Sequence record: ON568341.1 | Length of the DNA stretch: 64,000 bases | From: Escherichia phage UE-S1 | Reading direction: 5' to 3' (one strand) | In this document: positions 7,150-63,382 of the stretch, piece by piece | Layout of the letters: each line of letters opens with the position of its first letter | Numbering within the stretch: the first letter of the stretch is position 1 | The notes under the pieces: model-generated | Told to the model about the DNA's origin: nothing | The model's database searches: none | What the model saw: the letters and a program-made list of their open reading frames with translations, nothing else | Program-made: the position numbers and the translations under genes

Positions 7150-8286
7150 ATGTCCGAGAAAGAAATCAATCCAAAAAAAGCATCTACCGCAGCTAAAACT
7201 ACAAAACGTTCTACCAAAACTGCATCTAAAGGGCATACCATTGATGCAAGTGATATTTTTAACCAAACTACAAAATCACTCCCAGTACTGAAAGATGTTA
7301 AGGGTAATACTATGTCTCTAACAGTTCAAAACATCAACACTGTTGGTACAACTGCTGGTGCTGCTGTTGGACGATTAGCTGATGAAATCATGTCTAAAGT
7401 TAATGTAACTGATGACAATACAGAGTTTGGAAAATCAATCACAACAATTCTTACATTGACTCGTGCAGTTGATATTGACAGTCTTCAAGAAGATAAATCA
7501 ATTGTGGGGCGTATTAAGAAATTTTTTGTTAATGCTCAGCAGAAAGTTGGTGATCAGTACAAAAATAGCAAAGAGCAAATTGATGAAATCATGAAAACTC
7601 TTCAAACTGGTATTAATCGCCAGCACGGAGAGTGTGAATGGCTTGATAAAGCATATAATGAAAACAAAGAATATTTGTTTGAATTACGTGATACATTAGT
7701 TGGTTTAGAAGAAGTAACGAAATCGCAAGATGCATTGTTAGCAGAAATGCAAGCAGACAAAAATGTAGACTCTTTTGCTATTCAAGAGCAGAAGATGATT
7801 TGTGAAGCACTTTCTAAACAAGAAGATAAGATTCGTCGTCTTATTATGATGTGTGAACTAAGTGGCCCACGTCTGATGAGTATGAAAAAAGTAAACTTGA
7901 ACACTGTTTCTAAGTTTGAAGATTTAAAATCTGTTGTTATTCCAGCATGGAAGTCTCAATTGGCTGAACAGTTGATTTCCGAGCGTCAACGTAAGGATAA
8001 TGAACTGGGAAATCTAATTGATAATGAGACAAACCGTCTTTTAGAAACTAATTCTAAAATGGTTGCAGCAAATATGTTGGATGCAGCAAAGGCAAACAAC
8101 CGTGGTATTGTGGATATTAAAACTTTGCGTAATGTACATAAAACAATGATTGACAGCATTGAAGCAGTTATTGAAGAAGAGAAAAAAGGTAAATTGGAAC
8201 GTGAACGTGCTAAACAGGAAATTGCACAACTTTCCTATGAACTTGAAGACACCCTTCGTGAAATTGCCGAAAAAGCTAACAAGTAA
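7150..8286 (+). CDS. coiled-coil protein (378 aa); function unknown
   Basis: Long heptad-like K/E-rich sequence; RBS-like acgaggaat upstream. Confidence 0.55.
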   Translation: MSEKEINPKKASTAAKTTKRSTKTASKGHTIDASDIFNQTTKSLPVLKDVKGNTMSLTVQNINTVGTTAGAAVGRLADEIMSKVNVTDDNTEFGKSITTILTLTRAVDIDSLQEDKSIVGRIKKFFVNAQQKVGDQYKNSKEQIDEIMKTLQTGINRQHGECEWLDKAYNENKEYLFELRDTLVGLEEVTKSQDALLAEMQADKNVDSFAIQEQKMICEALSKQEDKIRRLIMMCELSGPRLMSMKKVNLNTVSKFEDLKSVVIPAWKSQLAEQLISERQRKDNELGNLIDNETNRLLETNSKMVAANMLDAAKANNRGIVDIKTLRNVHKTMIDSIEAVIEEEKKGKLERERAKQEIAQLSYELEDTLREIAEKANK

Positions 8287-8289
8287 TAG

Positions 8290-8343
8290 TTGACATATGA
8301 GTGCGTTTTTCATATAATAATCTTATTGAAAACGCACTTTTTT
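8290..8343 (+). promoter_or_regulatory. promoter (TTGACA-N17-TATAAT) embedded in terminator-like hairpin
   Basis: TTGACA 8290-8295, TATAAT 8313-8318; GTGCGTTTT / AAAACGCAC arms flank the -10, then T-run. Confidence 0.5.
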
Positions 8344-8367
8344 AATGTACATATAAGGAACGGACAT

Positions 8368-9057
8368 ATGAAACGTCGTCATATTAGTGTTGATATTGAA
8401 GCTCTTGGGACTCCTGAACTTTCAGGTTATGATATTATTATTCCAAATTATGCCGCAGTTGTGGTTCCAAGTAAACCTGAAAATGACATTCATCAGTTCT
8501 TATATATTAAATTGCCATATCAGGATCAAGTTGCTGCTGGTTTAAAATCAGATGCAGGTGCAATGGATTTTTGGATGAATACATGTCAGAAAGAATACTC
8601 CAATGCATATGCTGAAGTTGCCAGTACTATGAAACTCAAAGCACCGGAACTGTATGGACCGAATGGTCAATCACGACGATTTTTCGCATACAGTAGTATT
8701 GTTGATTTCTGGAAAGAATTACGTTACAATGATTATGGCGAAGAAGTCCCTCATTCAGTCTGGGGTAACGGGTGTAATTTCGATTGTAGTATTTTACAAG
8801 CAAATCATTTAAAATTAATGAACACTGGAGAGTTGTGGAAGTATGATGCACCTGAAAATGCACGCACGTTGAAACGCTTACTAAATGAAGAAGCTCGTAT
8901 TGAAATGGATGAAATAGTTTCGGTACAATTAGCTAAATTTGTCACATATGCAAACAAGTGTGGGATTAATGGGTTGGAGTTGCACCACCCACTGTTTGAT
9001 GCAGCACGTGAAGCAATCCAGATTTCATTTTGTCTAAACAAGCTTAAAATGGATTAA
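8368..9057 (+). CDS. DexA-like 3'-5' exonuclease (DEDD family)
   Basis: ISVDIEALGT (Exo I DxE), GNGCNFDCSIL, HHPLFDAAREA resemble T4 DexA (IIDFETMG, GMSFDFPIL, HDSIHDCAKD); start set at ATG after AAGGAA RBS. Confidence 0.6.
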   Translation: MKRRHISVDIEALGTPELSGYDIIIPNYAAVVVPSKPENDIHQFLYIKLPYQDQVAAGLKSDAGAMDFWMNTCQKEYSNAYAEVASTMKLKAPELYGPNGQSRRFFAYSSIVDFWKELRYNDYGEEVPHSVWGNGCNFDCSILQANHLKLMNTGELWKYDAPENARTLKRLLNEEARIEMDEIVSVQLAKFVTYANKCGINGLELHHPLFDAAREAIQISFCLNKLKMD

Positions 9058-48693: not shown

Positions 48694-48722
48694 GGGTTGA
48701 CTTAGGTCAACCCTTTTTTTAT
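48694..48722 (+). terminator. rho-independent terminator (GGGTTGAC-ttag-GTCAACCC)
   Basis: Perfect 8-bp stem followed by TTTTTTTT; related to hairpins at 57163, 59958, 61299. Confidence 0.75.
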
Positions 48723-56976: not shown

Positions 56977-57168
56977 ATGCTGATTTATAAATGTGATAAT
57001 ATTCGTGTTCTACAACATCCTTATCTTCAAATCTTTGATGTGCAGATGTTCATGGAAGGTGATAATCCGAGAACCTATGGACGTAAGTATGATTATTTCA
57101 CGGTCAAGCAGTGCAACAACATTGATGAAGTACGACGATTAGTACATGAACTCCAAAACAAAGGTTGA
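56977..57168 (+). CDS. hypothetical protein (63 aa)
   Basis: Track ORF. Confidence 0.4.
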   Translation: MLIYKCDNIRVLQHPYLQIFDVQMFMEGDNPRTYGRKYDYFTVKQCNNIDEVRRLVHELQNKG

Positions 57169-57187
57169 CTTCGGTCAGCCTTTTTTG
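57161..57187 (+). terminator. terminator GGTTGAC-ttcg-GTCAGCC (copy 1) with embedded promoter hexamers
   Basis: Hairpin then TTTTTTG; TTGACT in the 5' arm lies 17 nt upstream of TTATAAT. Confidence 0.75.
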
Positions 57188-59565: not shown

Positions 59566-59949
59566 ATGGTTGATAAATGGAATAAGAAAGATCCATCCCA
59601 TGATGTTGATATTTCTGATCTAGATGATGCACATAAGCATAAGTATCTAGATTCACTAGGTCTTCTCAAACCGGACCAAAGTCTTGCACACGAACGCCCA
59701 TCACGTGAAAAAGCATTCAGTCTAGAATCACTTGGTCATGAGCTAAATCGTGTGTTTGAAGAACACCCAATTTATGTACGTGATATTATTGAGAAACTTA
59801 AAGTAACTCCTAAAGAGCACTTTAAAGCAACTGTACATTCTGCATTCCGTGCATTGCATGATTCTCTCAAGAAAACTCATAATCTTCGTAAAATTCATGA
59901 TGAAATTGTGAATGCAATCGAAAGTGAAAAGCATAAGTTCAAGAAGTAA
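59566..59949 (+). CDS. hypothetical protein (127 aa); SLGLL-motif paralog
   Basis: AGGAG RBS; HKYLDSLGLLKPDQ; KLKVTPKEHFKATV. Confidence 0.5.
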   Translation: MVDKWNKKDPSHDVDISDLDDAHKHKYLDSLGLLKPDQSLAHERPSREKAFSLESLGHELNRVFEEHPIYVRDIIEKLKVTPKEHFKATVHSAFRALHDSLKKTHNLRKIHDEIVNAIESEKHKFKK

Positions 59950-59957
59950 TAGAAAAT

Positions 59958-59984
59958 GGGTTGACTTCGGTCAGCCTTTTTTTA
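59958..59984 (+). terminator. terminator GGGTTGAC-ttcg-GTCAGCC (copy 2)
   Basis: Identical hairpin followed by TTTTTTT. Confidence 0.75.
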
Positions 59985-60014: not shown

Positions 60015-61289
60015 ATGAAATCTATGGAGAGAAATCAAATGCCAAGTAATTTTACTGATAAAAATGGTGGTAACATGGCAGGTCACTCGGATAAATGGAG
60101 TGAACGCAACCGCCGACCAAATAGTTACCAAGCAGGTCAAGGTTCTCGTGGCTCCAGAAACCAAGGAACTGGTCTAGCTGGTAAAGCAAATGCTGAACCT
60201 GGTGAAGTTAAAAGTACTGAGAACATGACTGAGCTAGAAAAACTACGCTACGTTAATTCATTGGGACTTCTTAATGCTACACAAAAACAACGTCTAGCTG
60301 ATATGGAACGTGAAGAAAAAGAAAAGACTGCTCCTGCGAAAGAAGAACCAAAACAAGAAGCACCAAAGGCGGTTAACCCTGTCAAAGAACTGTCTGATAA
60401 GTTAGGTAAGATCTTTGCAAATAAACCCCAACTTATTCAAGGTATTGTCAAAGAATTGCAATCTGTACCTAAAGAAGAATTAAAAGCCAAAGCACAAGCT
60501 GTTCTGGATGCAATGAAAGGAAATACCAGTACTGAACCAACCGAAGTATTCAGTACTATTATGCGTGCACTGGAAGGTAAACAACAAGGTGAAGAACGTG
60601 GTGATGAAGTAAGTCTTGAACGTGTTCTTAAAACATTTGATAGTATTGGGAAAGAAGACCGTGTTAATGCACAACAGGTTAAAAATGTACTAGCAAAATT
60701 GGAAAACCGTCTAGAAGGTAAAGATGATAAGATTAAATTGGTATCCGATGCAGTTGAAAATGCACTTAAATCTTATGTACAAGGTGAAAAGAGTCGTTTT
60801 GTAACTGCTATGGATGCTGCATTCAATACTATGAAAAAGTACGAAGCGGATCATGGAGAGAAGGTAACACGAGATGGTTATTTAATGCGTGATGATGAAG
60901 AAGGTGCAGTGGAACAGAATGATGCTCATTCTGACGAAGATATTGATGACATGGAAGCAGAACTGTCACAGGACCGCCAAATGACTGAAAAATCTCACAA
61001 TGAACTACAGAAATTAATGCAGTGGGTTGCAGAAGTAGGTGAAAAGGCTGGTGAAGATAAGAAGAGTATCAACCGAAACCTAAGTTGGATTAAAGATAAG
61101 GTTGGTAATAACGCTCGTAAACTACAAAAAGCATGGACTGATGTAGTGAATGGTGCGGTAGATATTGATGTTGAGTCTGGTGAAGCATATGATTATGCAT
61201 TGACTACACTTGATGATTCTTTTCGTGACTACGAAAAAGGAAACGTTACTCCTTGGGAAAAGGACATAATGAGTAAATATGGTAAATGA
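60015..61289 (+). CDS. K/E-rich protein, SLGLL-motif paralog (~425 aa); start uncertain (60015-60039)
   Basis: LRYVNSLGLLNATQKQ; QSVPKEELKAKAQAV; track start at 59961 lies inside the terminator. Confidence 0.5.
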   Translation: MKSMERNQMPSNFTDKNGGNMAGHSDKWSERNRRPNSYQAGQGSRGSRNQGTGLAGKANAEPGEVKSTENMTELEKLRYVNSLGLLNATQKQRLADMEREEKEKTAPAKEEPKQEAPKAVNPVKELSDKLGKIFANKPQLIQGIVKELQSVPKEELKAKAQAVLDAMKGNTSTEPTEVFSTIMRALEGKQQGEERGDEVSLERVLKTFDSIGKEDRVNAQQVKNVLAKLENRLEGKDDKIKLVSDAVENALKSYVQGEKSRFVTAMDAAFNTMKKYEADHGEKVTRDGYLMRDDEEGAVEQNDAHSDEDIDDMEAELSQDRQMTEKSHNELQKLMQWVAEVGEKAGEDKKSINRNLSWIKDKVGNNARKLQKAWTDVVNGAVDIDVESGEAYDYALTTLDDSFRDYEKGNVTPWEKDIMSKYGK

Positions 61290-61298
61290 TAACAAAAA

Positions 61299-61323
61299 GG
61301 TTGACTTCGGTCAGCCTTTTTTG
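61299..61323 (+). terminator. terminator GGTTGAC-ttcg-GTCAGCC (copy 3)
   Basis: Identical hairpin followed by TTTTTTG. Confidence 0.75.
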
Positions 61324-61358
61324 TTATCATAGCTTTCCTAACTACAAAGGATGACGTG

Positions 61359-62000
61359 ATGACTAAGCAAGAAATATTCAAAACATTAATTGACATTTTA
61401 CGTTCATCTAAAACTCGTTGTGCAATGGAGTTTGATATTCCTTACGCTGAACGAGTCATCTTTCCACAAGTAAAAGCGGCAGGTCTTACTTTACTTGGTA
61501 TGGGGATGTACTCTGTAGTAGTTGAACATAAAAACTATCCAGGTCGTGCATTTAAAGTAACCACGTCACGATGGGATGGTTTTCGTGCTTATGCAAAGTA
61601 CTGTATTGATAACACAGGAACTAAGTTTCTTCCTGTAATATACAGTGCAAATGAACAAGGAAACTTTGGATGGTATGAAATGGATAAGTACTACCCTATC
61701 ATTAAACAAAAAAATAATTATGATGACTTTGTTAGTACTAAAATTGGAGATTTGTATTCGTATGCACATGCTGGTCAGTACGCAACTTCAGTGAATGAAC
61801 TGCGTGGAAATTCAGAAGAGATTGCCATTGCAACTGTTGCAGCTAACATAATGAAAGAGTTTCATGGTCGTTTTGTACCAGACATTCATTCCAGTAATGT
61901 GATGATGGATAAAGATGGAAATTTATTCATCACTGACCCTATTTCGTGTGATGTACGTCGAGAAATACCAATCACTGAAGAAGACCCAATTTTTTATTGA
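61359..62000 (+). CDS. protein-kinase-like fold protein (atypical kinase)
   Basis: Gly-rich GMGMYSVVV, Lys in AFKV, catalytic-loop-like DIHSSNVMMD, DFG-like FITDP. Confidence 0.5.
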   Translation: MTKQEIFKTLIDILRSSKTRCAMEFDIPYAERVIFPQVKAAGLTLLGMGMYSVVVEHKNYPGRAFKVTTSRWDGFRAYAKYCIDNTGTKFLPVIYSANEQGNFGWYEMDKYYPIIKQKNNYDDFVSTKIGDLYSYAHAGQYATSVNELRGNSEEIAIATVAANIMKEFHGRFVPDIHSSNVMMDKDGNLFITDPISCDVRREIPITEEDPIFY

Positions 62001-62025
62001 CAGAACTTGTGTTCTGGTGTATATT
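61997..62025 (+). promoter_or_regulatory. sigma70-like promoter (TTGACA-N17-TATATT)
   Basis: Upstream of ORF 62064. Confidence 0.5.
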
Positions 62026-62063: not shown

Positions 62064-62345
62064 ATGCGTTCATTTGAAAACTTAATAGGTAAACTTCTTT
62101 TATCTGAAATTGAAGAAGACGTTAAGGAATTATGCAAATCAAAAAGTTACATTCATTTGGATGAACTGTTTGTTAAGTACGGAGAGATTAGTTTTAAATC
62201 ATTATTTGTTTTTACTATGAAAGTACATAGTTTAAAGCACTTCGATTTAAGTTATAAAAATGATCAACCAAATCTATATCATATGTATTATCTCAAGAAT
62301 ATAGAAGAAGCTCATGCATTATTTTCTGAATATCTGAAGGTATAA
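62064..62345 (+). CDS. hypothetical protein (93 aa)
   Basis: Track ORF. Confidence 0.45.
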   Translation: MRSFENLIGKLLLSEIEEDVKELCKSKSYIHLDELFVKYGEISFKSLFVFTMKVHSLKHFDLSYKNDQPNLYHMYYLKNIEEAHALFSEYLKV

Positions 62346-62346
62346 A

Positions 62347-62685
62347 ATGGAACAATATTTTGAATTAATTAATAAAGTGTCATTCTATGTAGTGTCATTG
62401 ATGTGGGTTTATTTCATGTTTTGCTACATTATTGCATTCTTCCGATACACTACTTTATATGAACGTATCTATTATGATGCACCGATTTCATTCTTGGTAT
62501 TCTGTGCGTGTACGTGGGGAATATTAGAAGTACTGATATGTGGATATAGTACTGATGAATTAAATCTGGTATCGGTATTGACTGGGTTATCACTTGGCGT
62601 TATGATATCTTTCTTTCCAGTATGGTTGTTCTTTGAGCTGTTCCATCGCATTGATGTATGGCGTTCTAATATCCCTGAAAAATAA
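62347..62685 (+). CDS. small membrane protein, tandem paralog 1 of 3 (112 aa)
   Basis: FRYTTLYERIYYDAP ... WRSNIPEK. Confidence 0.5.
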   Translation: MEQYFELINKVSFYVVSLMWVYFMFCYIIAFFRYTTLYERIYYDAPISFLVFCACTWGILEVLICGYSTDELNLVSVLTGLSLGVMISFFPVWLFFELFHRIDVWRSNIPEK

Positions 62686-62694
62686 GGATTGATA

Positions 62695-63036
62695 ATGATT
62701 TATTACACTAACGTGTTTGCCTATGCTGTTGCTTGCATTTACATTGTTTACTTCTTATTTGGTGGAGTGCTTTACTTCTTTAAGTACAAAACACTGTTTA
62801 ATAGGATGTATCCAAATCACCCTATCGTAGTTGTACTTTTGATTCTTTCTGTTTCCCAAATAATCGTTGAAACTACAATGGGTATCAGTAGTGTACATTA
62901 TAGCTTCGGTACTATAGTAATTATTACTATGCTTATTGCATACATTTTAGTACTTGGATATGGTATATTTGGTAATGTTGGAATGAAAATGTATCATCGA
63001 ATTAAAACCTTACGTGATAATCTACCGGAGCGTTAA
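62695..63036 (+). CDS. small membrane protein, tandem paralog 2 of 3 (~113 aa)
   Basis: FKYKTLFNRMYPNHP ... LRDNLPER; ATG 62695 after AAGGA. Confidence 0.5.
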   Translation: MIYYTNVFAYAVACIYIVYFLFGGVLYFFKYKTLFNRMYPNHPIVVVLLILSVSQIIVETTMGISSVHYSFGTIVIITMLIAYILVLGYGIFGNVGMKMYHRIKTLRDNLPER

Positions 63037-63037
63037 T

Positions 63038-63382
63038 ATGTATAATTTAAACCTAATCTCATATATTATAACAACACTGTTTACATTCTATGCCTTTGTT
63101 GGTATAATCCTACTGTACTTTAAATTTTATAAAGTGTTTAACCGTTTCTATCCTTCAATGGAGAATGAGTTTTTCTTTGTGTTGTACGTAGGTTACACAT
63201 TAATGGCTACATGTTTCACTGTAGCCGATGGTGTCATCGGCATTAAAACTGATGCACCAAATGGTAGTACGCTGGTTGCATTTATTCTTACCGGATTCCT
63301 TGCAACTTATATTGCCTTCATTACAACATGGTCAGTAGTTGAATTTCTCTTGCGACTACGTAAGAATATGCCGAATCGATAG
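63038..63382 (+). CDS. small membrane protein, tandem paralog 3 of 3 (~114 aa)
   Basis: FKFYKVFNRFYPSME ... LRKNMPNR; ATG 63038 after GGAG. Confidence 0.5.
   Translation: MYNLNLISYIITTLFTFYAFVGIILLYFKFYKVFNRFYPSMENEFFFVLYVGYTLMATCFTVADGVIGIKTDAPNGSTLVAFILTGFLATYIAFITTWSVVEFLLRLRKNMPNR

Follow-up and report, generated by a model that had tools for sequence, protein, structure and literature searches.

We found that Escherichia phage UE-S1 encodes a minimal protein kinase of the T7 gp0.7 family (T7K; PF27024). Its coding sequence lies on the plus strand at positions 61359..62000, stop codon included, of the 64,000-nucleotide stretch of record ON568341.1 that was analysed here (hereafter the window), and specifies 213 amino acids. 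An earlier note on this DNA had proposed a protein-kinase-like product at this place, and homology to T7K, the catalytic residues and the predicted fold all support that identity. In our judgment the protein is quite likely an active stand-alone Ser/Thr(/Tyr) kinase of an Asteriusvirus-type jumbo coliphage. The assignment is correct but ordinary: it re-identifies a gene that has already been described, and another Asteriusvirus instance of it adds no new knowledge.

The kinase gene and its family

Megablast and tblastn searches of the phage collection placed the locus in the Asteriusvirus group (121Q, PBECO4, G17, phAPEC6, SP27 and Sharanji), jumbo coliphages with genomes of ~350 kb, to which identity at the kinase locus was ~89% in nucleotides and 95–96% in protein. 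The counterparts have been annotated as “protein kinase” (121Q gp205), “putative protein kinase, conserved domain PHA00451” (G17_00108) and “protein kinase; Klebsiella phage K11 gp0.7; PKc_like” (phAPEC6 gp031c). These three, Sharanji WNN14432.1 and the Salmonella phage Munch cluster are orthologues of the window kinase; all have the same motifs and all are without the shut-off (SO) domain of T7K. The Asteriusvirus orthologues agree with the window in their length of 213 aa and in their flanking genes, and differ by 8–9 substitutions, including DPL for the DPI of the window. The Sharanji genome paper has already suggested that, like T7K, the kinase of Asteriusvirus could impair host immunity (PMC11895373), and jumbophage homologues of T7K are also discussed by Bartolec et al. 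(Nature 2026, PMC13645617).

The protein matched PHROG 15752 (expect value, E, 3e-89) and PHROG 2828, which includes T7 gp0.7 (E 3.9e-17). By BLASTP it was 27% identical to T7 gp0.7 (UniProt P00513) over 160 aa (E 9e-10), residues 41–196 of the window kinase corresponding to T7K 68–216, and a profile of the jumbophage clade scored T7K at E 2.8e-16. The PF27024 (Phage_T7_kinase) assignment was precomputed on all 22 homologues from a set of 5.8 billion proteins and on the 95%-identical cluster representative P0001. Tblastn against the phage collection returned 725 records, ~24 of them jumbo-phage orthologues and the rest T7-like podoviruses (serine-threonine kinase, ~26–31% identity), and a search of 1.84 billion proteins with the jumbophage-clade profile yielded 1417 cluster representatives (E ≤ 1e-3). 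Membership of the eukaryotic protein kinase family Pkinase (PF00069) was not found; it takes a match to the hidden Markov model and the whole bilobal domain, activation segment/APE and αF–αI included. No second T7K-type kinase was present among the six-frame open reading frames (ORFs) of the window.

The only long ORF at the locus spans 61356..62000 (plus strand). Taking ATG 61359 as the start gives 213 aa with the stop codon TGA at 61998–62000, exactly the limits that the earlier note had assigned, and this length is shared by the G17 orthologue and most homologues. A putative Shine-Dalgarno element, AGGA (61348..61351, plus strand), read from the sequence, lies 7 nt 5' of this ATG, and the orthologues have GAGGA there. 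The 213-aa form, preceded by a GAGGA/AAGGA Shine-Dalgarno motif, is probably the true product. A longer, 224-aa form beginning at the start annotated for 121Q gp205 (8045–8719 in locus record L001) was compared with 61326–61359 of the window and rejected, the window reading ATC ATA against ATG ATG in 121Q; that start, which is also the one used in P0001, falls within a −10-like element (TATGATG). In comparisons of the window kinase with its G17, 121Q and phAPEC6 orthologues, the Nei-Gojobori ratio of nonsynonymous to synonymous substitution rates (dN/dS) was 0.03–0.04 at dS of 0.4–0.5, which marks the ORF as a genuine gene on which purifying selection acts strongly.

Catalytic motifs and predicted structure

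All residues that characterize catalysis in the T7K family were present (G47, G49, K66, D175, H177, N180, D193 and P194), and the four motifs pointed out in the earlier note were located in the product. The Gly-rich ATP-binding loop, GMGMYSVVV, comprises G47-M-G49-M-Y51 and strand β2 (residues 47–55; 61497..61523, plus strand) and aligns to LGSGAFGTV of EGFR; G49 is invariant and G47 occurs in at least 90% of sequences. The β3 strand AFKV (residues 64–67; 61548..61559, plus strand) contains the candidate ATP-anchoring lysine K66, equivalent to T7K K93 and to the VAIK lysine, which is invariant in the clade and 69-sequence alignments. The motif DIHSSNVMMD (residues 175–184; 61881–61910) is likewise there, but it is not of the HxD type that had been proposed: the loop reads D-x-H-x-x-N, and its residues D175-I-H177-S-S-N180 (61881..61898, plus strand), counterpart of HRDLKxxN, align to RDLKLEN of AKT1, D184 at the end of the motif not being conserved. 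FITDP (residues 190–194; 61926–61940) leads into the Mg-binding D193-P194-I195, the DFG-equivalent known as DPV in T7K, which is followed by S196 (61935..61946, plus strand).

Conservation of these residues, by which the kinase reading could be judged, was assessed in three sets of sequences, and the catalytic residues proved invariant or nearly so family-wide. In the clade alignment (23 sequences) G47, G49 and K66 were invariant, and D175, H177, N180, D193 and P194 were missing only in one truncated sequence. Among 164 distant family domains, D175, N180 and D193 were each found in 164/164 and P194 in 162/164, while G49 and K66 occupied 156/156 and 153/156 non-gap positions, respectively. The invariant columns of a 69-sequence alignment (19–64% identity) were M1, G49, K66, D175, N180 and D193. 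Such conservation across distant domains shows that the motifs are not chance matches. A single-sequence phmmer search of PDB sequences gave only noise (E ≥ 0.5). The family profile reached only marginal values in PDB sequences (E 0.01–1), yet it aligned the kinase motifs informatively: the family consensus “fDlHsgNvMldkdgqlvITD” was placed on AKT1 and EGFR, which identifies D175 as the HRD aspartate, N180 as the catalytic-loop asparagine and D193 as the DFG aspartate and, the type of the loop excepted, bears out the assignments of the earlier note. Independent functional support is given by mutational data from the T7K homologue JSS1_004 of Salmonella phage JSS1, which counters DndFGH and has the same catalytic loop as the window kinase; the spontaneous toxicity-attenuating changes G200W, N201T and M203T are located in the catalytic loop (PMC12345140) and map to S179, N180 and M182 of the window kinase.

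The kinase core is homologous to that of T7K, and in both proteins the module ends shortly past the DP motif. The equivalent residues are G47/G49 and G74/G76, K66 and K93, D175 and D195, N180 and N200, D193-P194 and D213-P214, and S196 and S216, with FITDPIS of the window kinase aligned to YITDPVS of T7K. In T7K the role of the DPV motif as a DFG-equivalent has been described and it is proposed to lock the enzyme in an active state, its valine being less conserved in jumbophages (PMC13645617). T7K differs in its N-terminal extension and in carrying a basic 117-aa SO/DNA-binding domain (243–359). The window kinase ends 20 residues past D193 with an acidic tail in place of that domain, and nothing in it aligns to T7K 243–359. 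The absence of SO from the jumbophage branch has been described as domain loss in the same paper; it rules out the complete gp0.7 architecture and leaves membership through the kinase domain intact. The two phages also differ greatly, T7K belonging to a 40-kb member of the Autographiviridae and the window kinase to a ~350-kb myovirus-type jumbo phage.

The inhibitory autophosphorylation site of T7K, Ser216 (PMC13645617), has a serine counterpart in the window kinase, S196 (DPIS; codon at 61944–61946). Most members of the jumbophage clade have G or A at this position (DPLG, DPLA), and serine was seen only in the Asteriusvirus type and in P0020 and P0029, so its description as “conserved in all variants” fails across the clade. 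Judging from spacing, T206 (13 residues past D193) might correspond to another autophosphorylation site of T7K, S227 (14 past D213).

The AlphaFold2 model, built on the 23-sequence alignment, had a mean predicted local distance difference test score (pLDDT) of 93 and a predicted template modelling score of 0.88. It begins with a clade-specific extension of three helices (residues 1–40; 61359..61478, plus strand; DSSP helices 3–14, 17–25 and 27–40; pLDDT 95–98), which is conserved within the jumbophage clade and precedes the point, residue 41, at which the BLASTP alignment to T7K starts. A five-stranded N-lobe with an αC-like helix (75–84), helices 127–141 and 152–168, and the catalytic and Mg-binding loops follow. 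Past residue 198 only a 15-residue acidic tail remains; the tail feature, CDVRREIPITEEDPIFY (61947..61997, plus strand; pLDDT 70–82), includes RREIPxTEEDP, which is conserved in the jumbophage clade, specific to it and absent from T7K. In the model the protein thus has a kinase fold reduced to a minimal core that, like the kinase domain of T7K, is without activation segment or αF–αI. With eukaryotic-like Ser/Thr kinases (TTK 3dbq, PknB 1mru, AKT1) it shares the geometry and motif order of the N-lobe, the catalytic loop and the Mg-binding loop. Foldseek against the PDB returned mostly AGC, MEK and CHK1 kinases at E ~1e-5 with template modelling (TM) scores of only ~0.4. Against BFVD the top match was a 213-aa viral protein, A0A3T0IG88 (60% identity, TM 0.90), followed by T7-like “protein kinase” models (TM 0.72–0.76). 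No structure of a T7K-family protein was detected in the PDB by phmmer, the family profile or Foldseek.

Activity, specificity and possible role

Kinase activity of the window protein appears highly probable from its sequence. In the proposed mechanism, ATP would be held by the Gly-loop (G47/G49) and K66, Mg2+ would be coordinated by N180 and by D193 of the DPI motif, and D175 would be the catalytic base that acts on the hydroxyl of a protein. The chain ends 20 residues past the DFG-equivalent, and the enzyme would thus operate with no activation segment, P+1 loop or αF–αI substrate-binding lobe. Because that lobe is missing, the active site is probably open and of broad specificity, with little preference for sequence, as in T7K. 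Lacking SO, the protein would be neither tethered to DNA nor able to inhibit transcription by that route, and autophosphorylation of S196 may provide T7K-like self-limitation. Transcription of the gene is probably driven by its own σ70-like promoter, and phosphorylation of host and perhaps phage proteins would probably reprogram the cell and/or weaken its defence systems. T7K itself phosphorylates almost the entire E. coli proteome and disarms several defence systems, and 4/4 Autographiviridae homologues that were assayed are hyperpromiscuous (PMC13645617). An anti-defence role of the window kinase can be put forward tentatively, at somewhat less than even chances.

Several observations weigh against this picture. 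In JSS1_004, which carries an SO domain that the window kinase does not have, the kinase and SO domains were both needed to counter DndFGH (PMC12345140), and T7 ΔSO gave only ~31% of wild-type phosphopeptides (PMC13645617); an SO-less kinase may therefore be a weaker or a different effector. The 122 predicted window proteins were not depleted in Ser, Thr and Tyr (17.9%, compared with 18.3% in the kinase), in which they differ from early proteins of T7-like phages, a result that is uninformative as a footprint in a genome of 33% GC and with no proper (late-gene) baseline. Local Pfam-A and NCBIfam scans gave no match to the window kinase; T7 gp0.7 was also unmatched there and the local Pfam copy does not contain PF27024, so this silence reflects library content and is uninformative. 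With regard to early timing, the upstream neighbours of the kinase are virion-associated proteins, and no data on the timing of expression in Asteriusvirus turned up in literature searches.

Three other explanations were weighed. The protein could be an active T7K-family kinase that works as a narrow-specificity regulator, its targets being a single protein or a few proteins of host or phage, recognized through the N-terminal extension and the acidic tail. Residues 1–40 and the tail are indeed strongly conserved in the clade and absent from T7K, the lack of Ser/Thr/Tyr depletion would fit, and the missing SO domain is the part that steers T7K to nucleic-acid-binding substrates, binds DNA and delays autoinhibition (PMC13645617). 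However, the active site, DP motif included, is built as in T7K, the homologues assayed were without exception promiscuous, and the model has no substrate-binding C-lobe; we regard a narrow regulator as rather improbable.

A small-molecule kinase of the protein-kinase-like superfamily, similar in type to the aminoglycoside, choline or sugar kinases and with a metabolite, a signalling nucleotide or an antibiotic as its substrate, would account for the missing elements with which canonical kinases bind protein substrates. The aminoglycoside phosphotransferase (APH) APH(3')-IIIa was the rank-4 Foldseek match in the PDB (E 3.8e-5), a lone enzyme of its kind amid protein kinases, and ribulosamine 3-kinase was among the weak profile matches (E 0.08). 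The window protein is homologous to a kinase proven to act on proteins and has the D-x-H-x-x-N motif, which makes this very unlikely; the APH/choline kinase type requires H-x-D-x-x-x-x-N and an APH-type C-lobe, which were not found, and there was no Pfam hit. That the protein is a pseudokinase or scaffold devoid of catalysis is hardly credible, since G49, K66, D175, N180 and D193 are all retained and invariant and selection is strongly purifying.

An active protein kinase of the T7K type, probably of broad action, is thus the reading we prefer. If the 213-aa enzyme does phosphorylate the proteome broadly and disarm defences, it would represent the minimal hyperpromiscuous kinase and would extend the T7K anti-defence strategy to giant phages. 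Among natural variants of T7K, those of jumbophages diverge the most, being reduced to the kinase core with no DNA-binding domain, and the window kinase can be viewed as a natural “ΔSO” test case. Whether an SO-less relative of T7K is hyperpromiscuous and acts against defences is an experimental question already posed in the literature (PMC13645617). It is conceivable, though doubtful, that the jumbo-phage homologues form a distinct functional branch of DNA-untethered minimal kinases in which the three-helix module and acidic tail replace SO for targeting or self-regulation, most of them, but not the window kinase, being without Ser216-type autoinhibition.

Transcription context and neighbouring genes

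Between the upstream virion-protein gene and the kinase, we found a putative intrinsic-terminator hairpin (61286..61330, plus strand) with the core GGTTGACTTCGGTCAGCC at 61299–61316, a UUCG loop and a T-run at 61317–61322; the RNA fold was −25 kcal/mol (z = −8.2). Its 23-nt core, GGTTGACTTCGGTCAGCCTTTTT, is identical at 57163–57185, 59959–59981 and 61299–61321, where 0 such repeats were expected by chance, and a variant occurs at 48695–48717. Overlapping the hairpin is a candidate σ70-like promoter, TTGACT-N18-TATCAT with TG before the −10 (61301..61330, plus strand), which as a motif has 10/12 consensus matches and whose −35 (TTGACT) is located within the 5' arm of the terminator stem. All three copies have a −10-like hexamer (TATAAT/TATACT/TATCAT) 18 nt after TTGACT, so that the unit looks like a compact, reusable terminator-plus-σ70-promoter cassette placed between genes. 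In G17, 121Q and phAPEC6 the cassette is likewise retained 5' of the kinase (−10 = TATGAT), though the upstream gene differs, which fits transcription of the kinase by host RNA polymerase as its own unit. Promoter-like sites were not enriched in the window overall (47 found, 42 expected). Most predicted genes of the window (118/122) are on the plus strand, and the kinase stands within a long run of small plus-strand ORFs; the early-gene context claimed in the earlier note is no more than plausible.

The two genes upstream (59566–59949 and ~60015–61289, the latter with an alternative start at 59961) encode paralogous Lys/Glu-rich proteins that both cross-match PHROG 16530 and 20398 (“virion structural protein”). 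Their phAPEC6 counterparts gp037c and gp035c (95–96% identity) were both found in the phAPEC6 virion by mass spectrometry, and in this region of small accessory genes the pair may represent packaged or ejected proteins. Delivery of the kinase with the virion was also considered; its orthologue gp031c is absent from the phAPEC6 virion proteome, in which the orthologues of its neighbours are listed. In relatives, three small genes (121Q gp202–204; phAPEC6 gp034c–032c) intervene between the kinase and the virion-protein gene; the window lacks them, as seen when 61289–61359 was compared with 6922–8045 of L001 (121Q), 6351–7507 of L002 and 3490–4646 of L004. The junction falls in the repeated terminator/promoter cassette and the preceding “GTAAATGATAA” is also shared, which suggests that the three genes were lost through recombination between two cassette copies.

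Among uncultured large phages, we observed T7K-like modules joined head to tail, 2–5 of them in a single polypeptide. Examples are P0030 (L006 193–3258; 1021 aa, five modules), P0170 (L008 8001–9941), P0033, P0034, P0049 and P0169; one is encoded on a 493-kb contig. Nearly every fully aligned module retains the Gly-loop, Lys, D..N and DP residues, and a Gad2-like (anti-Gabija) gene lies 3–4 kb from a tandem-kinase gene. Such “polykinases” are not mentioned in the available excerpts of the T7K paper (PMC13645617).

At the 3' end of the kinase, a near-consensus σ70-like promoter motif, TTGACA-N17-TATATT (11/12; 61997–62025), overlaps the stop codon, and a small hairpin (62001–62016) precedes the next gene at 62064. 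Further downstream are three tandem paralogues (62347–62685, 62689–63036 and 63038–63382) that encode small hydrophobic, membrane-like proteins of 112–115 aa. All three belong to PHROG 19285 (function unassigned), with 23–31% mutual identity and a C-terminal R-x-N-(I/L/M)-P-(E/N)-(K/R), and 121Q, G17 and phAPEC6 show the same arrangement.
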